From Nemertoderma westbladi (Eukaryota > Animalia > Xenacoelomorpha): DNA of 64,000 nt. This document shows positions 2-29,300 of the stretch, in pieces; positions within the stretch are counted from its first letter, which is position 1; every line of letters starts with the position of its first letter. The stretch covers positions 1 through 64,000 of the forward strand of contig JAUCBJ010008224.1 of assembly GCA_032718475.1 (NCBI GenBank). Reading direction: 5' to 3'. The position numbers and the translations under genes were made by a program. The notes under the pieces were generated by a model. It made no database searches, was not told the origin of the DNA, and worked only from the letters and a program-made list of their open reading frames with translations.

Positions 2-391
2 AAATATAGATATTTAAAGGATGAAGGGAAGTCTATCCCGTTTGACCAGGTTATTTTACTTAGACCAAAATGTTATAGCTTTCGTGGGGGGTCAGTTCCA
101 AAACGTGTCGCTAAAGGCGTAGGAAAAATGGTTATAAAAAAGAAACTCTCCCACGAATCATATTTAAAAGTATATAACGAGGTTAACGAGCATTACGAAT
201 ACAGTCAAAGGTTTCAATCTAATTTACATAAAATATACACCGTTTCACAAAGAAAAAAATCGCTAACACTGTGGGAAGATAAAAGGTACTACACATCGAC
301 TAATGAAAGTCTACCTTACGGTCATTATAAAACACATTTGGATCGTAAAGCGCCTGCCCCTAAGCTTTATATGCCGCCCATTATAGAATAG
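2..391 (+). CDS. Protein-primed DNA polymerase B, C-terminal part (5'-truncated by window)
   Basis: Frame open from position 2: YLKDE..LLRPKCYS..RVAKGVGK..H.IYT..KKSL..EDKRY..SLPYGHY, the typical Polinton pPolB C-terminal motifs. Confidence 0.9.
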   Translation, partial: KYRYLKDEGKSIPFDQVILLRPKCYSFRGGSVPKRVAKGVGKMVIKKKLSHESYLKVYNEVNEHYEYSQRFQSNLHKIYTVSQRKKSLTLWEDKRYYTSTNESLPYGHYKTHLDRKAPAPKLYMPPIIE

Positions 392-400
392 TGGATTGCG

Positions 401-961
401 ATGTCTTTTAGTATTGTCAACAGTAATATAAGTTTGAGGTTGGGTGATGGGTGCATATCATTCGATGTGCTGGCTAAACGAATTCGAAATGGAAAACTCA
501 TCTTAAAGCCTTACCAATATATCGCCAAAATTTGCGGATGGACGTGTCTCTTTTTCCCGAGCGGTAAGGTCACTGTACTCGGTAAATCACCTAAAATAAA
601 AAAAATTATTAAGTATATATATAAGCATACTGATTATAAACTAACTTTTATTTCAATCAATAGCCAAACTTATATTATTAACAATCTAGACATAGACTAT
701 AGCAAATTAATGAAAACGGTTGGGTTTCATTTTTTAGATAATTATTATAATGTGGAGGTGAAATATGAGCCGGAGATATTTAATAATATTCTTGTGCAGT
801 TTTATCGTCGGGGTAAAACTAGTTCTAATATCATAACATTTTGCGTTTTTTACACACGAAATGTTGTGTGTATGGCAAGACCCGAGATATTTCGAGTATT
901 TTTTCCAAAGTTTTTGAATTTTATCGGTAATTTAGATAGTCATTTAGGTAGAAATATTTAA
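401..961 (+). CDS. TATA-box binding protein (TBP)-like protein, 186 aa, core domain only
   Basis: Two TBP-like repeats: IVNSNIS...TCLFFPSGKVTVLG (cf. TALIFSSGKMVCTG) and YEPEIFNNILVQF...FCVFYTRNVVCMAR (cf. YEPELFPGLIYR...LLIFVSGKVVLTGAK). Length fits a TBP saddle. Confidence 0.8.
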   Translation: MSFSIVNSNISLRLGDGCISFDVLAKRIRNGKLILKPYQYIAKICGWTCLFFPSGKVTVLGKSPKIKKIIKYIYKHTDYKLTFISINSQTYIINNLDIDYSKLMKTVGFHFLDNYYNVEVKYEPEIFNNILVQFYRRGKTSSNIITFCVFYTRNVVCMARPEIFRVFFPKFLNFIGNLDSHLGRNI

Positions 962-1650
962 TTTTTTCATTTTTTGGTGTCAGTTTTAGGTTTGTCCGGT
1001 GGGATCTCGTTAGGTTTTTAAATAAACGTGGATATTACCATTATTCACATTATATATATAACGTGTTTTATCGGTAGTCTTAGGTTGTCAAGGGTGCCGA
1101 TTTCATTTCTGATGTCAGTTTTAAATTTACATAAATCTAGTCTATCTGTCTTCGGTTTGTCAGTCTTTCTGTCAGTCAGCCAGTCTGTCAAAACTTAAAA
1201 AAGTTTGAATTTTATTAGTAATTTGGGTAGTAATATTTAATTAGAAATTTCATAAAAATTTTTCGAAAAATTAAAATGTTCGTTTTTGAAAAATTTAAAA
1301 ATTTTGAAAGTTTGCCCTTTAGGATCTCGTTTGGTTTTTAAATGCGGATATTATCATTGTTCCCTTGATATATATATATATATAATGTGTTTTATTGATG
1401 GTCTTGGGTTTTAGGGGGTGCCGATTTCATTTCCGATGTCAGTTTTTACATTTACATAAATCTAGTCTGTCTGTCTGTCGGTCTGTTAAAACTTAAAAAA
1501 GTTTGAATTTTATTAGTAATTTGGGTAGTAATATTTAATTAGAAATTTCATAAAATTTTTCGAAAAATTAAAAGTTTCATTTTTGAATAATTTCGAAATT
1601 TTGTAGGTTTGTCCTGTGGGATCTCGTTTGGTTTTTTAAACGTGGATTTG
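905..1650 (+). repeat. Degenerate ~300-320 bp tandem repeat (~2.4 copies) with GTCT microsatellite
   Basis: GGATCTCGTT.GGTTTTTAAA recurs at ~1002, ~1322 and ~1619. AAGTTTGAATTTTATTAGTAATTTGGGTAG recurs at ~1201 and ~1499, with a degenerate copy at ~908. Confidence 0.85.
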
Positions 1651-1820: not shown

Positions 1821-2282
1821 ATGAAATCACTCAAAGCTTTAATTAAACAATTTGACGGGGATTTAAAGTTCTTATCTAACGCCTCCCCCAACCGTAGAAA
1901 AACCTTCTTACGTGTCGGCGGAACCGACGAACTTATAAGTTTTCTAATTAATATTATTCTAAATGTATTAAATGGTAACGTAAAAATTCCTGAGCAAACA
2001 ATCGCGAGGTTAAAACGCCATAAAAAAACAATACGCGAGATCGCTAAAAAACCAAAAGCCAAGTATCCCATTCGAATTTATCGTAAACGATTGGTGCAAA
2101 GGGGCGGATTTATAAATCTACTAATCTCTGGTTTAATGAGTGGGCTTAACGCTTATCAGAAAATATCACCCATAATAACGGCTGTAAGAGGCAGAAAATT
2201 AGCCCAATCCCGCCGGGGGTATAGACCTACTACCTCTGGCACACGCGTCAACCGTCAAGTTTCTAGGTTTCCCATCTACTGA
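1821..2282 (+). CDS. Conserved small basic Polinton virion/core protein with adenain-type cleavage motif
   Basis: NVLNGNV.I...L.RHKK.IR.IA...LVQRGG/FINLL pattern conserved in Maverick small core proteins; Arg/Lys-rich. Confidence 0.75.
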   Translation: MKSLKALIKQFDGDLKFLSNASPNRRKTFLRVGGTDELISFLINIILNVLNGNVKIPEQTIARLKRHKKTIREIAKKPKAKYPIRIYRKRLVQRGGFINLLISGLMSGLNAYQKISPIITAVRGRKLAQSRRGYRPTTSGTRVNRQVSRFPIY

Positions 2283-2299
2283 GTGGCTACCTATCAACA

Positions 2300-3010
2300 A
2301 TGTCCCGAGAGCCGACGATATCGCGGGAACCAATCACATCATACGACGCCTCTTTCAAGATGGGTTCGGCCATGATTATTGCGGGTCCAAGTTCTTCCGG
2401 AAAAACAGTGTTGGTATCAAAAATTGTAAAAAATAAAAATTTAGTTTTTGATATAACCCCGAAGCGTGTATTATTCTTTTATGGCGCCACCCCACCAGAA
2501 TTCCCGGGTATAACACATCTATTCAAAGGTTTACCGCAAAAAATTAATTCTATTTTCCGCGAAAACGATCTAATTATTATAGACGACTTGTTAAGCGAAA
2601 GTAAGAGTGATGAGAGTTTGACAGAAAGCTTCACAAAAACCTGCCATCATACCTCCTGTTTCATTATCTATATAACACAAAATTTCTTCAGTAAAGGGGC
2701 GGAAACACGGACTAGAAGTCTAAATGCCCAATATTGTATTTTCACAAAAAATCCCCGCGACGCAAGTCAAATAAGCTATATAGCGCGGCAAGTGTACCCA
2801 AAAAATAGCAATTTTATTGTTCAAGCATATAGTGACGCCACACAAAAACCATTCACACACCTTCTCTTAGACTTTCATCAAAAAACGGATGATAGTATAA
2901 GAGTTAGGGGTGATATTTTCAACCCATTAGGGCAAACTGTTTATCAACCCGCGAATATGAACTCTAACACACCTCACCAACGCCCCGAGGCCCAGTCTAT
3001 ACCGCAGTAG
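2300..3010 (+). CDS. DNA packaging ATPase (FtsK-HerA/A32-like)
   Basis: Walker A GPSSSGKT, Walker B IIIDD, and ITQNFF / SLNAQY..FTKNPRD motifs. Confidence 0.93.
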   Translation: MSREPTISREPITSYDASFKMGSAMIIAGPSSSGKTVLVSKIVKNKNLVFDITPKRVLFFYGATPPEFPGITHLFKGLPQKINSIFRENDLIIIDDLLSESKSDESLTESFTKTCHHTSCFIIYITQNFFSKGAETRTRSLNAQYCIFTKNPRDASQISYIARQVYPKNSNFIVQAYSDATQKPFTHLLLDFHQKTDDSIRVRGDIFNPLGQTVYQPANMNSNTPHQRPEAQSIPQ

Positions 3011-3130: not shown

Positions 3131-3592
3131 ATGAAAAATAACGAGATTAGCCTTGGAAATTTTAAGAAGTTGTATCTAGTTTCTACTTTATTAACGGATA
3201 CTTATAATAATAATAATAAGAAAAGCAATAATATAATACAACCGCTAGATGGTGTGACAATTTCATCCCAGAAAGCCAAACGATTGTTGAGTTATTTGAT
3301 GCGATTCTCGCGAGACAGAGTGCGGTGGAACGATAATAATAAACTCTATATAGAAAATAAACTTATTCCCGGAGCAAATATTGATCATTTGATTGAATTG
3401 CTGACTACAAAAAAAAATAAGAAAAACACCGAAATAATTCCAGGACAAGCAACATTTTTGGGGTTATTAAAACGATTAAGGATACCAAAACGATTAATTG
3501 GTCGCGGTTGGTTGAAACGGCAAAGGGTCCGCGTGACCCCTTCCAACACAAAACGCGCCGACGCGTGGAAACAATACGTAGGACTACAATAA
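3131..3592 (+). CDS. Conserved Polinton hypothetical protein
   Basis: KAKRLL..L...WN...IPGANI..L...PG..TF...L....IP..LIG pattern recalled from Maverick ORFs next to the integrase. Confidence 0.65.
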   Translation: MKNNEISLGNFKKLYLVSTLLTDTYNNNNKKSNNIIQPLDGVTISSQKAKRLLSYLMRFSRDRVRWNDNNKLYIENKLIPGANIDHLIELLTTKKNKKNTEIIPGQATFLGLLKRLRIPKRLIGRGWLKRQRVRVTPSNTKRADAWKQYVGLQ

Positions 3593-3716
3593 ATCGACCT
3601 GTGGAAACAAAGCGCAGGATAACATTAAAATAGTAGTAGTAGTATGTTTTTTGAACGTTTCATATTAAGTATTAACTGTCATTGCAAGTGTTTTCTTCCA
3701 CGACACGACACAACCG

Positions 3717-4802
3717 ATGGGGAGAATCGTAGAAAATCGAACAAACAAACGACTGGGAAGAATATATTACGATGTTTCAAATGCTGCCGGTTTCGCGAGC
3801 GTAACCAAACTAGCGAAAGCCGCTAAAGTTACGAGAAATCGCGCAAAAGAATGGTTGAGCTCCCAACGAACGTATTCCCTACACGCGCCGGCTAGGCGCC
3901 ATTACCCGACATCAAAAATCTTCACGAGCGGTATTGGTGATCTATACCAAGCGGATTTGTGCGATATGCAACCTTTTAGGGGTGAGAATAATGGCTACGG
4001 TTACATACTTACTTGTATTGACTGTTTTAGTCGGAAGGCGTGGGCGTTGGGTCTAAAACGTAAAACAGGGGTCGAAATTAAAAGGGCCCTAGCCGCGATA
4101 TTTAAAGATAGAAAACCTAAACGGCTAGCGGTTGATCAAGGAACTGAGTTTGTTAATAAATTGGTGAAAGATTTCTTACTGAACAATAATGTTCATTTTT
4201 ATACTTTAGTTAGCCAATTTAAAGCTAGTATCTGTGAAAGGCTGAATCGCACCCTCAAATCTCGCATGTACAGAATTTTCACGAGGAAACAGAATAGAGA
4301 ATGGATGGGTATATTGCCAAAAATATTGGTTGCATATAATAATTCAATACATAGAACCATTGGTATGGCGCCAAACTCTGTCAATAAAAAGAATGAAACT
4401 GACCTATTTTTAAAACTATATGGGAGTGTGGGTCATCCCAATAAAAGAAAACGCCGTGCGCAGCGTCGAGTTCATTTCAAGGTTGGTGATAAGGTGCGGC
4501 TGAGTTTAGCTAGAAAGCCATTTGACAAAGGTTATACACCTAATTATACTGTAGAAATTTTCAAAATCTACAGAATAAGATTGGATCGAGAGCCGTACCC
4601 TATGTACGAAGTTGCGGACTCGAATGGGCGCGTTATAAAGGGGACATTTTATCGGCATGAAATCCAAAAGGTAATAGAACCATTTCAATTCCTACCAATT
4701 GAAAAAATAATTAAAGAAAAAGTAAATAAAAGCGGCAAAAAGCAATATTTGGTTAAATTTGTTGGTTTTGCGGCACATCGGTGGGTTGATCACGTACAAT
4801 AA
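3717..4802 (+). CDS. Retroviral-like (rve) integrase with C-terminal chromodomain-like region
   Basis: DDE triad QADLCDM / VDQGTEF / CERLNRTLK. C-terminal IEKIIKEK...QYLVKFVGF..RWV is chromo-like. Confidence 0.95.
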   Translation: MGRIVENRTNKRLGRIYYDVSNAAGFASVTKLAKAAKVTRNRAKEWLSSQRTYSLHAPARRHYPTSKIFTSGIGDLYQADLCDMQPFRGENNGYGYILTCIDCFSRKAWALGLKRKTGVEIKRALAAIFKDRKPKRLAVDQGTEFVNKLVKDFLLNNNVHFYTLVSQFKASICERLNRTLKSRMYRIFTRKQNREWMGILPKILVAYNNSIHRTIGMAPNSVNKKNETDLFLKLYGSVGHPNKRKRRAQRRVHFKVGDKVRLSLARKPFDKGYTPNYTVEIFKIYRIRLDREPYPMYEVADSNGRVIKGTFYRHEIQKVIEPFQFLPIEKIIKEKVNKSGKKQYLVKFVGFAAHRWVDHVQ

Positions 4803-4824
4803 TTAATTATATAATTATATTATT

Positions 4825-5709
4825 ATGGATTACTTACATTTAACGTTGACTTCCAACGCCAGTCTAGATAAATATCCTGATAACACTCCCAGCGATTTCA
4901 CGATTGAGTTGTCCAAACCTATCCCCGTCAGCACAGATTGGGTCGTGGGTCTAAAGGAAATACAGTATGTGTCGACCTATAGAAATATTGAACAAAGATC
5001 TGGAATTAGAATTGGTGAATATATGGTTGATGAGGATTTGGAATTTCATATAGCTCCATACAATCTTATAGAAATCGATTTTAATCTTGGTCTATATGCT
5101 TCTATTGAGTCAATTTTAAACCATATTAGTGTTTATTTGAAAAATCCCGCAATATCCCACCACGGTTTCAAAGATGTTAAGTTTAACTACCAAAAACATA
5201 CATCAAAAATTCGTCTACATTGTGAGAAAGGCCGCTGTTTCCAATTCTATGGAGATATAATAAATATTTTCGGGTTATCGAGTTTAAAAAATAATTTAAT
5301 GGGCCTTGGGGCGCTTTGGGCAATACACTATAACAAAGATGATGATTTATTGAACTTAGGCTGTAAAGATACAAACAAAGCGGATGGAGTTGAATTCCCC
5401 GAACCTTGCGATATAACGAGGGATAGACACACAATGTTTATATATACTGATATGATTGAATCTTCTCACGTAGGACATTCGATGGCGCCTCTTTTGCGGA
5501 TAATCCCTTTGAAATGGGAACCATACTCATTCATCAACCTGGAATTCAAAAACACACATTACAAACAATTAAGAAATAAAAAAGTGCTCGACACAATTAG
5601 TATAACGCTTCGCGACCATAAAGGAAAGCATATAGTCTTTCATGGGGGTAAAACAATTTTAGTTCTAGAACTCAAAAAACAACAACGGCGACAAAAACTA
5701 CAAGAATGA
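4825..5709 (+). CDS. Minor capsid protein (penton, PX) paralogue 1
   Basis: LTLTSNAS..YPDNT.SDF...L..PI and MFIYTDMIE...VG...APLLR...HY....I.I.LRD..G..I.F..G motifs. Confidence 0.88.
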   Translation: MDYLHLTLTSNASLDKYPDNTPSDFTIELSKPIPVSTDWVVGLKEIQYVSTYRNIEQRSGIRIGEYMVDEDLEFHIAPYNLIEIDFNLGLYASIESILNHISVYLKNPAISHHGFKDVKFNYQKHTSKIRLHCEKGRCFQFYGDIINIFGLSSLKNNLMGLGALWAIHYNKDDDLLNLGCKDTNKADGVEFPEPCDITRDRHTMFIYTDMIESSHVGHSMAPLLRIIPLKWEPYSFINLEFKNTHYKQLRNKKVLDTISITLRDHKGKHIVFHGGKTILVLELKKQQRRQKLQE

Positions 5710-6509
5710 ACAGTTATTACGTTGTACTACCCTCAAACGCAAACCCCATAGAATTCCCGCGTAATAGCGCCGCCGATTTCCAAACAAATTTGCAAATTCC
5801 TTTACCTTTCGCTAAAGGGCAATGGTTAATAGGTTTAACCGGTATAACGTACGTATCTAGTATCAGGTATGACAATAGCGACATTTATATAAAGGCCATA
5901 AAAAATAAAAAAATGTTTACAAGAGATGTTACTCTCCCCGAAGGATCTTTCCTATCATTGGAAAGGATCATTGAGTACTTCAACAAAAGCCTTATTAAAG
6001 GCCAAATTAATATAATTGATAATACAGCACGCTCTGGTAATATAACCATACATTTTAAAGGTAAACAGTTGTCGATATTTGTCAGTAAACGTTTGGGTGG
6101 TTACCTAGGATTAACAGAACACGAGGTTGATGGCAAAGGTTTTATGTGTGTGCAAAATGCTGCGGGGGATTATCACTTGCTAAGGATTGATTCGCGGAAT
6201 AATAAGTACGACTGCCATAAGCATCCTAATGCTGTCGAAATACTGGAACCCAACATAAATATACATATCAATTGCGTCGAACCTCAATTTGTAGACAATA
6301 GCGAATACCCTCTGTTGCGTAGCATACCCATAGAAGGGGAATATGGGCAAATTATTAGTCGTGAAGTTGAGGAAGTCTACTATAAAAAAGTTAATTCAAC
6401 ATCTAATTTACGTTATATACGAGTTCGATTGATTGGAGATTCCGGAAATTTGTTGCGCTTTCATTATGGAAATTCAATATTGACGCTTCATTTTATACGA
6501 ATTGATTGA
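5706..6509 (+). CDS. Minor capsid protein (penton, PX) paralogue 2
   Basis: YVVLPSNA...FP.N...DF...L..PL and VEPQFV....PLLR.I....YY..V...I.V.L....G....F..G...LTLHF. ATGA overlap with paralogue 1. Confidence 0.85.
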   Translation: MNSYYVVLPSNANPIEFPRNSAADFQTNLQIPLPFAKGQWLIGLTGITYVSSIRYDNSDIYIKAIKNKKMFTRDVTLPEGSFLSLERIIEYFNKSLIKGQINIIDNTARSGNITIHFKGKQLSIFVSKRLGGYLGLTEHEVDGKGFMCVQNAAGDYHLLRIDSRNNKYDCHKHPNAVEILEPNINIHINCVEPQFVDNSEYPLLRSIPIEGEYGQIISREVEEVYYKKVNSTSNLRYIRVRLIGDSGNLLRFHYGNSILTLHFIRID

Positions 6510-6583: not shown

Positions 6584-7180
6584 ATGGATAAATTTCTAAG
6601 TCGCAGCCGTGGGCGTGATTATTACCCGACGCTGGAAAACCCGGGAATAATAGTAGATTTCCAATATTATACGCATCTTCCGCAGATCGACCAACACCCC
6701 GTTGCAACCATTTATTTTAAAGAGTTTGCGGCTTATAATACTACCATCAAATCATTAGAAAACGTATGGTTTATTAATGGTCCACCTGCAAAAATTTTAA
6801 GTTTAAGCGAATACGACCGTCTCACACAACTCGCCAATATTACGCATCACATTAATTTTGACTACGGATTTATGGACCAAAGCGCATTTAAAATGTACAT
6901 ACAGGAATGGTTACAAGAAAAAAAACGGTTGGGGTTTCAAATATTAATACGCGGAATACCGAAATTATTTATTTTAAAAAATGAATTTAATGTGAATGGA
7001 ACACTTCTAGAAACGTACGGCATAAACGAAAAATATGTTGATTATGACACCAAATGCCTTTTTCACGATTTTTCGGCAATAACAAATTGTGCCTACCATT
7101 CTGATAATAGTGATTTTTGTTTTAATTATTGTTCTGCGAAACTCGCGGTTGGTTATGGGAAATGGTTGTCGTCGAATTAA
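6584..7180 (+). CDS. DEDD/RNase H-fold exonuclease-like accessory protein with Cys/His-rich C-terminus
   Basis: IIVDFQYY...FKEFAA...HHINFDYG...IRG..K...LE...C..H......CS resembles the Polinton-associated nuclease-like family. Confidence 0.55.
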   Translation: MDKFLSRSRGRDYYPTLENPGIIVDFQYYTHLPQIDQHPVATIYFKEFAAYNTTIKSLENVWFINGPPAKILSLSEYDRLTQLANITHHINFDYGFMDQSAFKMYIQEWLQEKKRLGFQILIRGIPKLFILKNEFNVNGTLLETYGINEKYVDYDTKCLFHDFSAITNCAYHSDNSDFCFNYCSAKLAVGYGKWLSSN

Positions 7181-7440
7181 TGTATATATAATTAATTATT
7201 GCGTTATTATATGCTACTTATATTTGTAGATTACACATATACGTATGTAGTAAAGAATTATTATTATATGTTATAATAAATACTCCAGCGAAACTCGCGG
7301 TTGGTTATGGAAAATGGTTGTCGTCGAATTAATGTATATATAATTAATTATTGTGTTATTATATGCTACTTATATTTGTAGATTACACATATACGTATGT
7401 AGTAAAGAATTATTATTATTATATGTTATAATAAATACTC
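7136..7440 (+). repeat. Near-perfect ~150-bp direct duplication of a gene 3' end and polyA signal
   Basis: GCGAAACTCGCGGTTGGTTATGG...AATAAATACTC at ~7136-7284 and ~7288-7440. Confidence 0.95.
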
Positions 7441-7983: not shown

Positions 7984-9234
7984 ATGAGTAAATTAGAATT
8001 ATCATTATTCTCAAGTAAAACAAATCAGCGAGAATATACATCTTCACATTTTTCGGATATCTACCCGATTTCTACTCTTGACGCGAATGCCCGACAAATC
8101 GAGTTCTTTATACCCCAGTCAAATGTTCTATATACTGATTTAAAGAATTCGAAATTTCACATTAAATATAAAATTACATGGGATGGTAATAGGGCTAACG
8201 ACGATACAACCCTCCACCATCTTAATTACCCGGGTGGGTCACTATTTGAAAATTGTTCGTTATATTTAAATGAAAAGCTAGTTGAAACCTCGAATGGGTT
8301 CTACGCCTATAAGTCTACGTTTCAGACATTACTGTTGACAGATGCTAACGAAAAACGCAGTATTTTAAGAGCTGGTGGGTATGAAGATACTGATAATAAT
8401 CTAGGTGGGGTACCTGTCGCTACTGAGAATGACGTTCGCGGGAATTATGTTAAATTCGTTGTGGCCCCAATTTTTTTAGACCTGGCAAGCCAGGACAAAT
8501 TACTGCCGCCGGGAATTAACATTCGACTTCGTATAGACCGAGTATCGAATAATTTTTTTTTGAAAGTTGAACCCCCCGCAGGATTGGTAAACCCAAGAGT
8601 TGAAATCATGAATATTAATTTAAAAATAAAACGCCACAAGATTGATGCCGAGGTTATGCGTGCGCATTTGTTGGGGTCACAAAAAGATGACTTTATTTAT
8701 AACTTGTTAAAACAAGAAGTGAAAACCTTCACTATTGGTGGCGGGCAGTCCAGTTATACAGAATCGAACATAATCCAAGGAAAATTACCTAAGTATATTT
8801 TGGTTGGAATGCTTACCAACGCCAGCTTCAACGGGGAATTAAGCAGTAATCCGCTACATTTTAACCATTTCGGTTTAAATTATGCCGAACTAAACATCGA
8901 CTCCCGTATTATACACGGATATCCATATCGCCCTAATTTTCTGGAAAACAATTTTATGTTGGAATTCGAAAGTTTAATGAACGTGTTCAAGAGCTTGAGT
9001 GGCGTATTTTGCTCGCTAACACCTGAACGGTTTCGTACCCAATTTCCTTTGATCGTATTCGATCTTACTGCGGGAGGCGACCAAAGCCATGAGATTCAAC
9101 CTAGTATTCATACAAGCGGGCATTTGATTCTGAAATTTAGTAATGCACTAGATAACACTATTAACGTTATATTAATGGCAAGCTATGACGCTCTTCTATC
9201 TATTTCGGAAGCCAAGGAAATAATAACTGAATAA
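7984..9234 (+). CDS. Major capsid protein (double jelly-roll, PY/hexon-like)
   Basis: SKLELSLF..Q...S....YPIS...IEF.IP...Y.DL, SLF....LYLN, QDKLLPPG..IR.R, LPK.I.VG...AS.NG..SNP..F.HF motifs; 416 aa. Confidence 0.92.
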   Translation: MSKLELSLFSSKTNQREYTSSHFSDIYPISTLDANARQIEFFIPQSNVLYTDLKNSKFHIKYKITWDGNRANDDTTLHHLNYPGGSLFENCSLYLNEKLVETSNGFYAYKSTFQTLLLTDANEKRSILRAGGYEDTDNNLGGVPVATENDVRGNYVKFVVAPIFLDLASQDKLLPPGINIRLRIDRVSNNFFLKVEPPAGLVNPRVEIMNINLKIKRHKIDAEVMRAHLLGSQKDDFIYNLLKQEVKTFTIGGGQSSYTESNIIQGKLPKYILVGMLTNASFNGELSSNPLHFNHFGLNYAELNIDSRIIHGYPYRPNFLENNFMLEFESLMNVFKSLSGVFCSLTPERFRTQFPLIVFDLTAGGDQSHEIQPSIHTSGHLILKFSNALDNTINVILMASYDALLSISEAKEIITE

Positions 9235-9286: not shown

Positions 9287-9742
9287 GTGCACGCTAAGAT
9301 GTTGGACTCTATACAATTAGCGAAATTCCCGGTGGGGCCCGAATACATTGGTGTTTACGCAATCGACCAATTACACCTAATACATGCAAAAAAAAAAAAT
9401 AAGCATAAACAAAATTATTCATTTATTATTAATAATCAACGTATAGGCCTACCAGGGCAACACTGGTCTTGCGTACGCGTGGTTAAGAGAATTGCTTATT
9501 ATTTAGATTCGTTTGGTAAAGCTCCTCCGCCAAAAATATCATATTGGTTGCATAAATATACCCAAAGGCATACTTGGAATCGTAAAATATTTCAAGCGCC
9601 GCAATCGACTCAGTGTGGTCTATTTTGTCTGTATTATTTAACCGAGGTGCCGAAAAATCCTGGAGCAATGAATATATTCACCTCTAATTTGCGGTACAAT
9701 GATTTATTGTCATTACTGTGGACACTTTCATTAATAAAATAA
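9287..9742 (+). CDS. Adenain-like cysteine maturation protease (probable ATG at 9299)
   Basis: Catalytic His (PGQHW), Asp (YLDSFG) and Gln/Cys (FQ...STQCGLFC). Confidence 0.92.
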   Translation: MHAKMLDSIQLAKFPVGPEYIGVYAIDQLHLIHAKKKNKHKQNYSFIINNQRIGLPGQHWSCVRVVKRIAYYLDSFGKAPPPKISYWLHKYTQRHTWNRKIFQAPQSTQCGLFCLYYLTEVPKNPGAMNIFTSNLRYNDLLSLLWTLSLIK

Positions 9743-10829: not shown

Positions 10830-11764
10830 TTCGTTCGATTCATGGCTCGACCTATTTTTTCATCAAATCACTGTATAACAGAATTATTGGCAATTAAAAC
10901 TTATGTTGGCATCGGACGGCGATAAGACAACTCACCGATAGCGCCTATATACCACCACCACCTACCGAAAATTAATGTAAGTAATAATTTCGAAAATTAT
11001 TATAATAACAATAATCACTTCACGGCTCGCCCCACAACTAGTTGCTTAGCAATAACTATAGAATTGTAATATTGGTGGCTGTCATTAGTTGAATACAATA
11101 ACCTTACTTCGATGCTATCACTCACTTCATGGCTTGCCCCATAGGTAGAATAATCAAATTAAAATAATATTATAAATACTATAACCTTATACTCACTTCA
11201 CGGCTCGCCCCATTTTTTCAATGTTGGAAAGGAATGAAGGGGACGTTGGGTGATGGTGGTAGTGGTAATGATGTTGTGGGTGAGGAAGAACTCACTTCAC
11301 GGCTCGCCCCCATAAGTCTGTGTTTATTTACCTTTTTTAGTTGTTGCGTCATAACCTTACTTCGGCGCTATCACTCACACTTCGGCGCTATCACTCACTT
11401 CATGGCTCGCCCCATAGGTAGAATAATCAAATCATGTTAAAGACTTTTATAATAACAAACGTCTGCAACCCACTTACTATATTGGGTTTTACCTATTGCG
11501 GTTCAAGGTCAAACGCCGACCGGTAGACACGAATTAATTAAATTACTTCCGCCTGCAAACTGGTCTTATACCGCGTATGTCACATATATACACAGCGGTG
11601 ACATATGTTACATATGCACAATGGTAACCATGGCAACCATAGTAAGTGGGTGGGGCAACAATAGTAATCATAGTAAGTAGGCGGGGCAAGAGCCGTTCGG
11701 CAAATTCTTTAACATGGTAGACTATGGCAGACGCTGTCTCAATCACGTTGTTTAACGTACTACT
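10830..11764. repeat. Right terminal region/TIR of the Maverick with reiterated CACTTCAYGGCTYGCCCC motifs
   Basis: Motif at ~11016, ~11123, ~11194, ~11293 and ~11396. A longer block ending CATAGGTAGAATAATCAAAT is repeated at ~11101-11160 and ~11354-11433. Confidence 0.7.
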
Positions 11765-14700
11765 GAGCTAGTCACACTAGCTCGTTATGCTCGTCGCCCG
11801 ACGTTATGCACGACGCTCGTCGTACCTAATCACACTCTTACATATATATTATTTTACATATATTTGGTGGCTGGTTACTATTAAGTTACATTTATGATGT
11901 ACCCTGATTACGTTGGTTGCCTAGTGATATCAGCAGATCAGCTGATCATCAGTACTTCTGTAGTACTGCACTTCGGCTTCCTAAAGCCTACACCTGTACA
12001 CTTCTGCACTGCCCTGTCAGACATATTAATACATAATATACTGATATGATATAGCCTCACGCTCACCCTTGAGTTATTCCATATCACTACAGTTTGTGTG
12101 TATACAGAATAGCCACGGAGCAACCAGGACGTTTGTAAAATTTATTCGCTTTGCAGTATATTGCTATCAATATATTGTTGGCTATTTATTTGTCACACAA
12201 AGAAAATACAACCTGTAGCGTGAGCTAAATTTAGTGTATTATTATTATTTGATCATTAAAATAATATAATATAAGTATTTATACATTTATACACCATGAA
12301 CGTAATATAGATTCATTTTCTGATGACACGGACCCCCCCCCCCCCCCAGATTTTTCTACAAATCTTTATCATATTGCTAGAAATTTGAAACACAACTAGT
12401 TCAAATCACCGTCGATGACCCCATGAAGCCGGAATTTTCGATTTTACCTTTAAATGTTTTTATAAGCGTTTTAAAAAAGTGTCTTTTGCGAAATCGCACC
12501 CTCCGTATCGTGGCCATTCTTCACATTAGTCGTAATTGCGTTGCAAGGATTCGAAATATGTAACAATATCTGAATTTCGTTGAAAACAGCTGAGATACAG
12601 GCGTTCAAAGATTGCAAGAATTATTGTTCGCTGCAAGCCATTTATTCTATTTAATAAACACAAATTCTAGAACGTGTTATTTATTTTATAAGTTGGTTGG
12701 CAACAGCGGTATTCCTATCCAATATATATATTGCGTGGCTATTCATACATAAACAAAATGTTCCAGAACATCGTGTATTTATTAAATAGAATAAATGGTC
12801 TTCAGCGAACGATACTTATTGCAATCTTTGAATGCCTATATCTCAGTTGTTTCTCAACGAAATTCAGATATTGTTACATATTTCGAGAAATTCCGATATT
12901 GTTACATATTTCGAGAAATTCCGATATTGTTACATATTTCGAGAAATTCAGATATTGTTACATATTTCGAATCCTTGCCAGGCAAGCTTTCTAATGATAT
13001 AAAAAATTACGACTAATGTGAAGAATGTCCACGATACGGAGGGTGCGATTTCGCAAAAGACACTTTTTTAAAACGCTTATAAAATAAATTTAAAGGCAAA
13101 ATCGAAAATTTCGGCTTCATGGGGTCATCGACGGTGACTGGAACTAGTGGTGTTTCTAATTTCATGCAATATGATAAAGATTTGTAGAAAAATCTGGGGG
13201 GGGGGGGGGGGGGGGTTCCGTGTCATCAGAAAATGACACAATATATTACGGGCATAGCCTACTATATTACAGGCCGTGCCAACGTGCAGATACAATAAAC
13301 CCCCACAGCGACTATAACTCATAACGAGCTAGTCACACTAGCTCGTTATGCTCGTCGCCCGACGTTATGCACGACGCTCGTCGTACCTAATCACACTCTT
13401 ACATATATATTATTTTACATATATTTGGTGGCTGGTTACTATTAAGTTACATTTATGATGTACCCTGATTACGTTGGTTGCCTAGTGATATCAGCAGATC
13501 AGCTGATCATCAGTACTTCTGTAGTACTGCACTTCGGCTTCCTAAAGCCTACACCTGTACACTTCTGCACTGCCCTGTCAGACATATTAATACATAATAT
13601 ACTGATATGATATAGCCTCACGCTCACCCTTGAGTTATTCCATATCACTACAGTTTGTGTGTATACAGAATAGCCACGGAGCAACCAGGACGTTTGTAAA
13701 ATTTATTCGCTTTGCAGTATATTGCTATCAATATATTGTTGGCTATTTATTTGTCACACAAAGAAAATACAACCTGTAGCGTGAGCTAAATTTAGTGTAT
13801 TATTATTATTTGATCATTAAAATAATATAATATAAGTATTTATACATTTATACACCATGAACGTAATATAGATTCATTTTCTGATGACACGGACCCCCCC
13901 CCCCCCCCAGATTTTTCTACAAATCTTTATCATATTGCTAGAAATTTGAAACACAACTAGTTCAAATCACCGTCGATGACCCCATGAAGCCGGAATTTTC
14001 GATTTTACCTTTAAATGTTTTTATAAGCGTTTTAAAAAAGTGTCTTTTGCGAAATCGCACCCTCCGTATCGTGGCCATTCTTCACATTAGTCGTAATTGC
14101 GTTGCAAGGATTCGAAATATGTAACAATATCTGAATTTCGTTGAGAAACAGCTGAGATACAGGCGTTCAAAGATTGCAAGAATTATTGTTCGCTGCAAGC
14201 CATTTATTCTATTTAATAAACACAAATTCTAGAACGTGTTATTTATTTTATAAGTTGGTTGGCAACAGCGGTATTCCTATCCAATATATATATTGCGTGG
14301 CTATTCATACATAAACAAAATGTTCCAGAACATCGTGTATTTATTAAATAGAATAAATGGTCTTCAGCGAACGATACTTATTGCAATCTTTGAATGCCTA
14401 TATCTCAGTTGTTTCTCAACGAAATTCAGATATTGTTACATATTTCGAGAAATTCCGATATTGTTACATATTTCGAGAAATTCCGATATTGTTACATATT
14501 TCGAGAAATTCAGATATTGTTACATATTTCGAATCCTTGCCAGGCAAGCTTTCTAATGATATAAAAAATTACGACTAATGTGAAGAATGTCCACGATACG
14601 GAGGGTGCGATTTCGCAAAAGACACTTTTTTAAAACGCTTATAAAATAAATTTAAAGGCAAAATCGAAAATTTCGGCTTCATGGGGTCATCGACGGTGAC

Positions 14701-14839
14701 TGGAACTAGTGGTGTTTCTAATTTCATGCAATATGATAAAGATTTGTAGAAAAATCTGGGGGGGGGGGGGCGCAAATGACACAATATATTACGGGCATAG
14801 CCTACTATATTACAGGCCGTGCCAACGTGCAGATACAAT
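11765..14839 (+). repeat. Near-identical ~1.56-kb tandem duplication (11765-13296 vs 13326-14839)
   Basis: GAGCTAGTCACACTAGCTCG starts at 11765 and 13326. Both copies end in GTGCAGATACAAT. Identical spurious ORFs appear in both copies. Confidence 0.97.
12290..13252. mobile_element. Foldback MITE, copy 1 (right tip replaced by a P-element end fragment)
   Basis: Long inverted arms (TCATTTTCTGATGACACGG-polyC ... polyG-TTCCGTGTCATCAGAAAATGA). Internal 28-bp repeat x4 at ~12859-12970. Confidence 0.85.
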
Positions 14840-15204
14840 TCTGACTTGGCGGCCGAGTTGGACTTGGAACCAGACTCCGCAATCAGCCAGTAGGCCTACA
14901 GCCAGACAGCAATACCTGAATTCAGCATTGGAGCCTACACTATACCTACAGCTGTACAGACCTAGGTCAGTAGGTGTGTTCCATGTCTTACTTCAGTACT
15001 TGTATGTACTGTACTGGTACTCCCTTTTGAGAAGTTTTAGATAAGTTTTAGGCTACTTGTGCCTTTGCGCCGAAAGTCTTCGACGCAGCATTACGACTGG
15101 CGTTGGAAGTGGAAGCCATCGCAAAGATGTGCAGCGCCAGCGCTAAAATTTAGAACTAATTAAAACATCCAGGTATTAGGCCTACTTGGTGCTTGGATAT
15201 CGAT

Positions 15205-17727
15205 ATGCCTCGGAAGTGCTGCGTGCCAGAGTGTCGGTCAAACTATAAAAACGCCACCCCATGCAGCGTTTTCCGTATTCCAGGGGAGGAGCCTTATAGA
15301 TCGTCATGGATTTCCGTATTATCAAAAGTGCGTGCTAATTTGCATGTGACTAAACAAACCGTTGTTTGTGAACTCCACTGGCCTGAAAACTATGAAAAGC
15401 GCCGTGCTTATCGCTCAATTAAAATGATTCCAGCAGATCCACCGTCTGTGTGGCCAAACATCGCTCCAAGTTGTACGCCCACCCATGCTAACAACCGTCC
15501 CCGCAACCGTAAACTCGTTGCATCTATGCGATCATTACAGCCGGACGAGTTACCCCAGTTTCTGCAGGGGGATATTGTGACTTATGGATTAATTCGATCA
15601 ACAGCTTCTGATAAACTTAACTGTTTCCAAAATCTTATCGTCTATGAGTGCAATGATGCTGATGGATGTAATGGGGATAATATGACAACTATATTGCAAT
15701 CGTCTGAACTTATCGGTTCGTCGCCAAAATTTATGATGAAGATAAAGACATCGCTGCAGTTCGAATGCTACAATTATGGAGTCAGAATATCAGTTCCATT
15801 ATGTGTTACTAATCGTATAATTATTGCTTCGCGGTGGTCAATTATTGAAAATATTATTAGGTACCTTTCTAACTGTGAAGCTTCTCACAAAGTCGAGATT
15901 CTACACGAACATTTGACGTGCATGGCTCCAGTTTCTGCGGGAGATAAGCGCTGGGATCCTGAAACATTGGTTCGAGCTTTCGAGTATTATGCCACCAGCC
16001 ATTGCTTATACCGTAAACTTAGAGAAGATTTTAAACTGCCAGGTGTGCGAACTTTACAACGAATCACATCTTCCGTCTCACATGCTGATGACTCTATGTT
16101 TTTATTTAGCGTTTTTAACAAACTTCCAATCGAGCAACGTCGTTGTATAATTCTTCTCGTTGAAATTTATGTTAAAGCTGCAGTGAGATATGTAGGTGGA
16201 GAACTATTTGGAGAGGCTGCTAATTCCCCAGGACAATTGGCTCGTACTATATTGGGGCTGATGATAAAGTGTCTATATGGTGGGCCTACATTTCTTAATA
16301 AGATGGTACCCATTCTTAAATTGAATGCAAACTTTCAGCAACAAATAGTTTATGAAATATCCAGTGACATCATAACATCTGGAGGGGAGATATTGTGCAT
16401 CATTTGCGATAACTTGAAAGTTAATAGAAAATTTTTTTCTTTGCACCAGACAGTAAGAAATGAACCCTGGCTTACCCAGAATGGTACCTTTCTAATTTAT
16501 GACTTTATACATTTGTTCAAATGTATTCGCAATAACTGGATCACAGAAAAATCGAAAACTATCGAATTTGATGGATGTGTAGCGAAATGGTCCTGTATTG
16601 AAAGTCTCTTTGAACGAGAAAAGGCATCATCAATAAAGATTGCCCATCGATTGACACAGAAGGCAGTGTACCCAAAGTCTATTGAAAGACAGGATGTTTC
16701 TGCTATGCTCCGTGTGTTTTGTGATGAAACTGTTGTTGCTCTTCGTACTCACGTTGATCCTACTGATGATGATAAAGAAACCGCAACTTTCATTGAGAAG
16801 TTCGTTCGCGCATTTAAGATACTTAACATTCGCAGTCGCAGTGAAGACCAGCACTTAAACGACCCACTGCGCCAACCATTTACCGACTCAAATGACCCAC
16901 GACTCTCCGCGTTACTGATGCTGGCTAACCAAATCGACTCAATGGATTGCAAAAATGGCAACCTTCGCTGTCATACTTTTACTATTGATACTGCTAAGGC
17001 CATCTCTCATACATTTCGTGGCATTGTACATTTGATTCGCCATTGTCTCAACAATGGTTTTCAATATGTACTCCCCGGTCAGTTTACCACTGATCCCCTG
17101 GAAAAGGCGTTTGGACGGATCCGACAGTCAGCAGGCGGTACTTATTTCATATCTGCAGTCCAGGCAATGCAATATTACTCAATACAAAAGACCAAATTAA
17201 TAACTGCATTGGATCAAGATTTTCTAGATTTTCAATCAACTAGCGTATCTCATAAATGTGATAACTGTGCTTTCATGCTAACTGAAGAGGACGCTGCAGT
17301 ATTCGATTCCTTGTCAGCCCTTGAGGTTGACGAGTTGGCCTTCGACACAAAGTCTGCTTTGCTATATGTTGCTGGTTATATACAGCGTTATATTCCCAAC
17401 GATGATGACGATGACACATACTTTTATGCAATGCAGTTTGGCGGCTTTCTTGGTGAACTAAATCGAGGGAAATTGGTTACACCATCCGATACCTTTGTCC
17501 AGTTTACATTCTTTGCTTACATCATGTTTATTAGTTTAAACAAGCACAGACTATGTCGTTTTAGTTTAACCAATATTTTTGAAACAATTGCGGATAGTTA
17601 TTTCGCCCCAGTCGTGCCAAAGGTGTGCTGTACCAGACTGTGCAACATATTTCTTAATAATTACAGTGTATTAGTCACGCCTACAAGCTCAAAGGAAACA
17701 TCAATTAAAGCATTCAAGTTGTGCTAA
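15205..17727 (+). CDS. THAP-domain P-element-type transposase (intronless; first catalytic Asp replaced by Val)
   Basis: THAP C2CH (CCVPEC...VCELHW...PSVW), LP..RTL, ICDN, DFIHLFKCIRNNW, TDPLEKAFG.IRQ..GG, YVAGY. LLVEIYVK stands where a DE motif is expected. Confidence 0.93.
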   Translation: MPRKCCVPECRSNYKNATPCSVFRIPGEEPYRSSWISVLSKVRANLHVTKQTVVCELHWPENYEKRRAYRSIKMIPADPPSVWPNIAPSCTPTHANNRPRNRKLVASMRSLQPDELPQFLQGDIVTYGLIRSTASDKLNCFQNLIVYECNDADGCNGDNMTTILQSSELIGSSPKFMMKIKTSLQFECYNYGVRISVPLCVTNRIIIASRWSIIENIIRYLSNCEASHKVEILHEHLTCMAPVSAGDKRWDPETLVRAFEYYATSHCLYRKLREDFKLPGVRTLQRITSSVSHADDSMFLFSVFNKLPIEQRRCIILLVEIYVKAAVRYVGGELFGEAANSPGQLARTILGLMIKCLYGGPTFLNKMVPILKLNANFQQQIVYEISSDIITSGGEILCIICDNLKVNRKFFSLHQTVRNEPWLTQNGTFLIYDFIHLFKCIRNNWITEKSKTIEFDGCVAKWSCIESLFEREKASSIKIAHRLTQKAVYPKSIERQDVSAMLRVFCDETVVALRTHVDPTDDDKETATFIEKFVRAFKILNIRSRSEDQHLNDPLRQPFTDSNDPRLSALLMLANQIDSMDCKNGNLRCHTFTIDTAKAISHTFRGIVHLIRHCLNNGFQYVLPGQFTTDPLEKAFGRIRQSAGGTYFISAVQAMQYYSIQKTKLITALDQDFLDFQSTSVSHKCDNCAFMLTEEDAAVFDSLSALEVDELAFDTKSALLYVAGYIQRYIPNDDDDDTYFYAMQFGGFLGELNRGKLVTPSDTFVQFTFFAYIMFISLNKHRLCRFSLTNIFETIADSYFAPVVPKVCCTRLCNIFLNNYSVLVTPTSSKETSIKAFKLC

Positions 17728-28170: not shown

Positions 28171-29300
28171 GAAAGATTAGTGGAGAATGAAAGATTAGAA
28201 CTGAACGTTACACCAAGATCCTTTTCTTCATTGATAGATTCTAGAATGGATTCATTCATGGAATAAGATGACTGCGGATTCTTACGTCCAAGATGAACAA
28301 CTTTACACTTAGCTGGGTTGCTGGGTTGAACTGAAGATGCCAACGATTTTCCCAATCAGCAAGTGAGTCTAAGTCAGCCTGGAGACAATCAATATCAGCA
28401 GAAATGTGGAGTGCCCTATAAATTTTGGTGTCATCAACAAACACCTTGCAAGTGGATGATACAACATCAGGAATGTCATTCACAAATATTAGGAACAAAA
28501 TAGGGGCAGTCACCGTTCCTTGGGGGACACCACTGGAGACCATATGTACGGGAACTACATAGTACACCATTTATACGTACACACTGGGAACGATTAGAGA
28601 GGAAATTGCTGATCCATTGTGCCACACTACCTTGGATTCCATATGCGTTCAACTTTTGGAGAAGCAGCTTGTGGTATACAGTATCAAAGGCACGACGCAA
28701 ATCGAGATATACTACATCGGCTCCAGAGTTGGGTAACTGTGTGGAACGGCGGGACCTTTCTCCATGTTCTGAGTCGGTGAATAGGTTGTTTGATTCGAAA
28801 TGGTTTACCAAAGCATCTCTTCCAAACTTCTCACAAACTTTCGCCAAGATGCATGTGAGGGAGATAGACAGTAGTTTTCCGGATTGTGTCTAGGCAGTTT
28901 CTTAAGTGGAGGATTAATAATGGCAACATGCCAATCATCAGGCACCTCACCCGTTTCAAAGGACATCCTAAATATACTATGACATGGAACAGCAATCACA
29001 GCTGCCAGTTCTTTAAGAACCCTACTATGGAGAAGATCTGGGCCAGCCGACATAGTAGGATTTAGATCACTCAGGGAGTCCAGTACATCATCAACAGAAA
29101 AATGAATATGTTCCAAAGGTTGGAGGTTTGTAGTAATATTTGAGATGTTAGGTCTGTAGTCACATGGAATATTCTGATATTGTTGTCATCGGTGAATACA
29201 TTGGAAAATGTAGCCTATTACTGAATATTTCCGCCATACCAGTTTCTGAACTCACGGATTCACCCTCACTACGCAACGGGCCTACTGGACATCTGGTTTT
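28170..29300 (-). pseudogene. CR1-type non-LTR retrotransposon reverse transcriptase fragment
   Basis: SAGPD..H.RVLKEL, VP.DW..A.I.P..KK, YLDLRRAFDTV.H..LL.KL, SGVPQG, FVDDTK, KCKV.H.G, EKDLGV, with frameshifts. Confidence 0.92.

Follow-up and report, generated by a model that had tools for sequence, protein, structure and literature searches.

A strongly diverged TATA-binding-protein-like gene in a Maverick-type element of Nemertoderma westbladi

Cellular TATA-binding proteins (TBP; PF00352; yeast 1YTB, human 1CDW) have the form of a two-lobed saddle, and the central minor-groove surface of the canonical protein comprises N69/N159, T124/T215 and V71/V161. The roles of the phenylalanines that kink DNA and of the glutamates that contact TFIIB, the latter being a pair in the C-terminal lobe (yeast E186/E188; PMC7221094), are taken here from two published studies (PMC12529657; PMC7221094). 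The 186-aa protein described below, encoded by a Maverick-type element of Nemertoderma westbladi, shares with cellular TBP the equivalents of N69, F116, F190, F207 and E186/E188, whereas F99, V71, V122, T124, N159, V161, P191, G210, T215 and G216 are changed, the N-terminal extension is missing and helix 2 is shorter.

Viral TBPs are already known, and the present protein is an extreme variant of such viral TBP mimics. For KSHV ORF24, it is established that a polar-rich TBP face reads variant TATA (PMC12529657). This beta/gamma-herpesvirus type of vTBP, which mimics TBP with a DNA face of higher polarity and uses host Pol II at variant TATA promoters, serves as our working analogy. According to that study, ORF24 is large and multidomain, belongs to a six-member complex, keeps all four phenylalanines and has lost the TFIIB glutamates (PMC12529657), unlike our protein, which differs from the ORF24/UL87 type of vTBP in being a 186-aa bare core with three phenylalanines and both glutamates, and without the Pol II-binding N-terminal domain. 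The giant-virus (Nucleocytoviricota) TBPs, also divergent, are among the nearest neighbours of the protein in the ESM Atlas and BFVD. About 40% of them retain the first glutamate, the presence of which co-varies with that of a TFIIB encoded by the virus (PMC7221094); giant-virus TBPs are mostly accompanied by viral TFIIB, whereas none is visible in the element studied here, and an RNA polymerase is not expected at its size.

A comparable genomic setting is that of the MELD viruses with adintovirus-like PolB, for which a TBP-labelled gene appears in the legend of Figure 5 of Starrett et al. (2021; PMC8502044). As in our element, the gene so labelled belongs to a mid-size pPolB virus, and it may be of the same family as ours or of another. 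In the accessible text, the MELD TBP is a legend label only, placed in the section on non-animal datasets, with no TBP analysis alongside (PMC8502044), and the searched supplement text of that paper (one file, possibly incomplete) contained no match to TBP or TATA. Term searches for TBP, TATA and TFIIB in several Polinton papers and in PMC8097293 retrieved no mention; a description may stand in subscription journals, Repbase entries, figures or bioRxiv supplements. The earlier note on this DNA had put the gene forward as the best candidate for an undescribed system; with a TBP label already published for related viruses (PMC8502044), its novelty is lower than assumed. What the protein adds to the Maverick TBP family is its divergence and its TFIIB-stirrup pattern, with no demonstrable promoter.

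The element and its TBP-like gene

The window (the whole 64,000-nt stretch of DNA that was analysed) opens within the element, whose recognizable Maverick/Polinton set consists of pPolB, an RVE integrase, an ATPase and a protease, the last two as weak matches (all on the + strand, as are the other genes given in this paragraph). The 3′ end of pPolB (2..391), which runs off the window, matches with E 1.7e-20 a 1245-aa ORF of the related locus L030, itself assigned to PF03175 DNA_pol_B_2. Beyond the TBP-like gene lie a conserved 153-aa Maverick ORF (1821..2282), with homologues that neighbour the ATPase in many of the related loci, the A32-like packaging ATPase (2300..3010; Pox_A32 E 0.009, weak), another ORF of 153 aa whose homologues in related loci are weak (3131..3592) and a retroviral-type integrase with a chromodomain (3717..4802; rve E 1e-10). 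Two paralogous ORFs (4825..6509, that is, 4825-5709 and 5706-6509) are putative minor capsid proteins by gene order, and a conserved 416-aa ORF (7984..9234) is a putative major capsid protein by size and position; these candidates for the jelly-roll capsid proteins are conserved ORFs whose size and order would fit, with no library match. An adenain-like cysteine protease (9299..9742; sub-threshold matches to Josephin, E 2.6e-4, and to Peptidase_C5, E 0.11) lies before ACTACT, which is probably where the element ends on the right (11759..11764, +; reverse complement AGTAGT, a terminus typical of Polintons), with a host direct repeat starting at 11765. Of the terminal inverted repeats and target-site duplication, only the right-hand side falls in the window, which does not reach the left end. 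Searched one at a time, the ATPase and pPolB retrieved no viral loci.

Several further features accompany these genes. Between the capsid candidates, a 198-aa ORF (6584-7180) has faint Maelstrom and DnaQ matches and possibly a DEDD-type nuclease fold, and a 152-nt tandem duplication (7136-7440) comprises the end of this ORF and the AT-rich spacer downstream. Outside the element, a ~1.56-kb direct duplication running from the element end, with nested inverted-repeat (MITE-like) elements (11765-14840), is followed by an intact 840-aa THAP/P-element-like transposase (15205-17727), by broken reverse-transcriptase-like frames on the − strand, labelled by eye as probably an old LINE (28476-29185), and by a 43-nt satellite of ~646 copies with a strong strand skew, which fills the last 28 kb (35587-64000).

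The ORF at 401..961 (+) encodes a divergent two-lobed TBP-like protein of 186 aa in which N7 (yeast N69), F52/F127/F150 and E123/E125 (yeast E186/E188) are kept. As the earlier note had described, the frame is intact and stop-free, requires no intron and begins 9 nt after the end of the pPolB frame (391), and it contains the motifs LFFPSGKVTVLG (residues 50-61), YEPEIF (122-127) and CVFYTRNVV (148-156). At the same base make-up, a 185-codon open frame would arise by chance with P ~1.3e-7 per start; the GC content of the gene is 31%. A TATAAAA (326..332, +), 75 nt upstream of the ATG and within the pPolB 3′ end, is a possible host-TBP promoter but not above chance, TATAWAW occurring 30 times on the + and 31 times on the − strand in 11.8 kb, and was rejected as a promoter signal.

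The space between the TBP-like gene and the next gene (984..1650) is non-coding and consists of about three degenerate ~300-nt repeats, one part of which is a repeat that has high depth and numerous loose ends in the sequencing runs. Depth peaks and many loose ends at 1040-1200 and 1360-1520 mark a separate high-copy repeat which, with a GTCT microsatellite, sits inside the element directly after the TBP gene. In the DNA runs X1, X2 and X3, which stem from two samples and two studies, the entire TBP-like ORF is covered at about the depth of the neighbouring genes, with minor variant contigs of the ORF at far lower depth, a pattern that fits a multi-copy element family, depth giving no copy number.

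TBP fold, family and residue changes

By sequence comparison, the product of 401-961 is confirmed as a two-lobed TBP-fold protein. A Pfam search, one of the checks proposed in the earlier note, matched TBP with E=0.0013 over residues 47-74 only, the 19 bits falling short of the curated gathering score of 22.9. By hhalign, residues 4-162 aligned to a reference profile of 11 ORFs, picked as full-length, non-duplicate TBPs from 29 viral-contig loci by a motif scan, with a probability of 91.3 and a score of 45.1, compared with 13.2 +/- 2.7 (maximum 22.9) for 200 shuffles, 14.1 for the reversed sequence and at most 19.1 for 12 other ORFs of the element. The two half-repeats claimed at the outset are each significant alone (N-half 28.2 against a maximum of 19.8 in 100 shuffles; C-half 31.2 against 21.95), and TBP clusters made up 29 of the 30 ESM Atlas feature matches (best 0.95), at a recognition of 1849, below the tool's mark of 2300.

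Identity to cellular TBP is ~20%. Direct homologue searches with the protein returned 0 of 64 candidates at E<=0.01 and, in a set of 1.84 billion representatives, no match at E<=0.001; the PDB sequence search gave 3 chance matches and nothing more, and the protein had no match in NCBIfam, plasmids or metagenome contigs and 0 loci in viral contigs. Structure comparison was divided: the single-sequence model (pLDDT 37) had no meaningful Foldseek match, whereas the model guided by a TBP alignment (pLDDT 67) matched TBP chains (best E 7e-8, TM ~0.56-0.63) as well as giant-virus TBPs, both comparisons being partly circular. The register used for the guided model, N95 = yeast N159, was rejected, family alignments placing S88 there, so that the guided model, which has its lowest pLDDT at 80-105, is probably out of register there.

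TBP is clearly an accessory gene of Maverick-type elements and, as had been supposed, not a core one. An ATPase-alignment search yielded 82 related loci (the best 80 of 548 metagenome matches and 2 viral contigs), many of them fragmentary and many apparently closely related, and in this set, whose counts are no frequency estimate, a TBP-like ORF is present in 5 loci and in 3 of the 13 that are at least 10 kb long. The TBP-like ORFs of these loci (L030, L064, L080, L089 and L111) all score above the Pfam cut-off. The gene immediately precedes the ATPase in L030 and L064 and lies on the other strand in L080 and L089; it follows pPolB in the window element only, pPolB-TBP adjacency being found in none of the 82 loci (best 80 of 548 plus 2). 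Among the 3637 ORFs of the same best-80-plus-2 set, the best phmmer matches of our protein are the TBPs of L030 and L089.

A profile built from these two proteins and our own retrieved 124 proteins (at least 120 among the matches listed), which come with no genomic context; one of them, P0032, is nearly identical to the L089 protein and another, P0033, close to that of L030. Because this search draws on identical short words, YEPEL among them, the conservation of the stirrup is overstated. A family HMM of 99 full-length members, our protein excluded, scored the latter at 49.2 bits over one continuous stretch, compared with 19.6 for an HMM of cellular and giant-virus TBPs. In a tree of 51 rows, including 35 family rows dereplicated at 60% and leaving out the partial L064, it falls within a 37-row clade together with L030, L089, L080 and 33 family rows (support 98/96), outside which the L111 TBP is placed. 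The branch of our protein, 3.15, is the longest in the tree, which makes its placement unsure. Judged from its sequence, the ORF is an intact, strongly diverged outlier of a compact Maverick-carried TBP-like family. It shares the N-x-N, P-x-Q, (Q/N)-S-x-T and YEPE-F signatures with L030, L089, L080 and L064 and with the retrieved proteins P0032-P0151. It departs from the family in having lost 12 of the 24 conserved columns, in the 9 residues inserted ahead of YEPE, in the basic character of helix 2 and in belonging to an element without a detectable shared motif.

In the residue map, yeast numbers derive from alignments and family columns from the 35 rows. The residues kept from cellular TBP are N69 (N7), F116 (F52), S118-G119-K120, G125, Y185-E186-P187-E188, F190 (F127) and F207 (F150). 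The earlier note's view of the four DNA-kinking phenylalanines stood for three (F52, F127 and F150, equivalent to yeast F116, F190 and F207), but its assignment of Tyr38 to the first was wrong: the yeast F99 column corresponds to K36 (MAFFT) or P37 (a gap-free by-eye reading through the L080 TBP), and Y38 lies outside it, one or two positions past F99, position 38 being variable in the family (R7 H5 Y4 Q4 of 35 rows). At codon 38 (window 512-514), two adjacent variants jointly give Phe for Tyr at ~30% (X2) and 22% (X3) of depth; X2 and X3 represent one sample, the variants are absent in X1, and their linkage on the same contig is deduced from equal X3 depth. Residue 38 might still stack on DNA, since Phe seems to occur there in some element copies.

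Across the minor-groove surface only N69 is kept, with N159 replaced by S88, T124 by L60, T215 by M158, V71 by N9 and V161 by T90. Some of these changes are of the family type, namely N9 (Asn in 23/35 rows), S88 (Ser/Thr in 32/35) and T90 (28/35), along with the missing Phe at F99. Other family hallmarks have been lost, including Arg at V122 (31/35; here T58), Met at T124, Arg at I194 (24/35; here L131), Asn at L205 (31/35; here C148) and P191 (29/35; here N128), as well as two glycines invariant in 35/35 family rows (G210 to R153 and G216 to A159). The 12 of 24 family-conserved columns that our protein keeps put it below all 35 family rows (16-24). Its short, basic helix 2 carries a net charge of +6 (family median 0, range -7 to +5), which resembles two eukaryote-type TBPs (+5, +7). 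The DNA-facing surface is, on this reading of the alignments, rewired twice, family-type changes being retained and further family hallmarks lost, and its target would consequently differ from TATAAA and from the CATAAAC of L030.

On the side facing TFIIB, E123/E125 align with yeast E186/E188, so that in sequence both TFIIB-binding glutamates are kept. Both are present in 35/35 family rows, a count biased by the word search, and in L030, L064, L080 and L089, loci with no TFIIB gene detected, two of the four being short. The sole TBP locus with its own TFIIB gene, L111 (PF00382 E 5e-11), has Asn at the first glutamate; there, at 3612-4807 of a 20,618-nt IMG/VR contig, the TBP-like and TFIIB-like genes overlap in a Maverick-type locus. 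The visible ORFs of the window element gave no match to TFIIB, its left arm being outside the window. The glutamate pattern, in this small sample, points to host TFIIB as the predicted partner.

Upstream motifs in the element and its relatives

Shared 7-mers 10-100 nt upstream of ORFs were compared with 100 shuffles in 23 loci with at least 6 ORFs, out of 26 loci of at least 7 kb (L055, L056 and L060 dropped; loci from the best 80 of 548 plus 2). In L030, CATAAAC stands upstream of 7/15 ORFs (8/15 in another count), and in L080, ATGCAAA upstream of 5/14 ORFs (6/15 in another count), with 0/100 shuffles as high in both cases; the L080 motif is an octamer-like word which, we presume, might also be read by a host factor. 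The best motif of the TBP-bearing L111 was not significant (17/100 shuffles as high). A variant-TATA motif was hence found in 2 of the 3 TBP-bearing loci of at least 7 kb, compared with a motif, the GC-rich CGTCGCC, in 1 of the 20 loci without a detected TBP. As to the genes concerned in L030, CATAAAC (within 90 nt) precedes the ATPase, the integrase and the putative minor capsid gene, and TATAAAC the putative major capsid gene; the TBP gene of L030 is without CATAAAC, and its KilA-N gene has a canonical TATAAAT.

In the window element, TGAACGT, which resembles the L030 motif, lies 52, 65 and 68 nt upstream of ORF 3131, the integrase and the putative major capsid gene, respectively. It was rejected as a shared promoter motif, being upstream of 3/12 visible genes with 80/100 shuffles as high and p=0.53 in a positional permutation that gave 0/60 in L030. 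The L030 motif matrix showed no enrichment in the window element (p=0.40) and was likewise rejected as its promoter signal. TATTATT (5/12 genes, 5/200 shuffles), a word of low complexity, was rejected as not significant, and a 13:1 strand bias of TRAACG (8/2758 comparable patterns) was discounted as chosen post hoc. The matched-promoter half of the system is thus seen in relatives, and none was detected among the 12 visible genes of the window element.

Possible roles of the protein

The TBP-like protein of the window element likely helps to steer host RNA polymerase II to element genes. We give about even chances to its being the element's own promoter-recognition factor, recruiting host TFIIB and Pol II. 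It would be made early from a host-read promoter, and the rewired saddle would bind an AT-rich sequence or a TATA variant upstream of element genes, three of the four phenylalanines presumably serving DNA binding and bending; the retained YEPE stirrup would recruit host TFIIB and RNA polymerase II, the target genes probably being, by analogy with L030, those for integrase, packaging and capsid. The redirection of host Pol II envisaged in the earlier note fits the retained TFIIB-binding glutamates, but the promoter reading that it implies is unsupported in the window element, where the motif tests were negative. Also against recognition of its own promoters are the loss of half of the 24 family columns, the TBP-bearing L111 with no motif and a left arm that might hide a partner gene.

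That last point leads to an orthogonal pair, in which the protein would work with a TFIIB-like partner encoded in the left part of the element, as in L111, where the two genes overlap among protease, capsid, integrase and ATPase genes; most TBP-carrying giant viruses, too, have TFIIB (PMC7221094). We consider such a pair improbable, given that the visible ORFs have no TFIIB match and both glutamates are host-like, that the L111 genes are adjacent whereas the window TBP is followed by non-coding repeats, and that the L111 TBP is outside the clade. A decoy, the second function raised in the earlier note, would sequester host TBP partners (TFIIB via the stirrup; TFIIA, Mot1/BTAF1 or TAF1 via the basic N-lobe helix) and so dampen or shift host transcription with no promoter reading. 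The stirrup is indeed better kept than any other motif, family hallmarks of the DNA face having been lost, the helix-2 charge, above all 35 family rows, is like that of eukaryote-type TBPs, and an element motif was not found; yet the DNA side retains the three phenylalanines, N7, N9, T90, K43 and K56, the Lys excess may stem from the gene's 31% GC, and TFIIB binds TBP well only on DNA, all of which makes a decoy quite unlikely.

The gene might, finally, be a relaxed relic, descended from one with a CATAAAC-like motif and now drifting, intact through recent family amplification only. Its longest branch, the half of the conserved columns lost and the absence of a motif agree with this, and ordinary TA-rich sites, usable by host TBP, abound in the intergenic DNA. 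Decay of the ORF among copies, which the earlier note had named as a sign against its proposal, was not seen: none of the 17 listed (best-supported) variants gives a stop, compared with 82/1665 possible single changes, a weak argument against the relic; 11 of the variants are non-synonymous, which would suit it, and 6 synonymous, too few to show selection. More telling is that, at approximately three changes per site, the frame has acquired neither a stop nor a frameshift and YEPE-F and the three phenylalanines are untouched, which is unlikely without selection. Because YEPE-F, N7, P37, F52, G55, G61 and F150 have been kept with an open frame over so long a branch, the pattern implies that the ORF has been under long-term selection, as we infer, and a relic appears unlikely.

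Recognition of element promoters by the Maverick TBP, if extended to the family, would mean that many animal Mavericks carry a one-gene switch consisting of a minimal TBP, host TFIIB and an element-specific TATA variant, protein and site changing together, with TGAACGT read in the window element, a tentative generalization that we find rather doubtful. If true, it would provide a natural series of orthogonal TBP-promoter pairs operating on host Pol II (CATAAAC in L030, ATGCAAA in L080 and TGAACGT in the window element), and the system, with its small protein, short candidate motifs and natural variants, is directly testable. Combined with a rewired DNA face, a grip on host TFIIB would amount to the herpesvirus late-gene strategy in its smallest form. 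If the gene is a relic, the window copy marks only the spread of its family; otherwise, this most diverged member found would reveal the extent to which a TBP saddle can change and whether the motif shifts in step with the protein, which bears on the timing of capsid and integrase gene expression in Mavericks.
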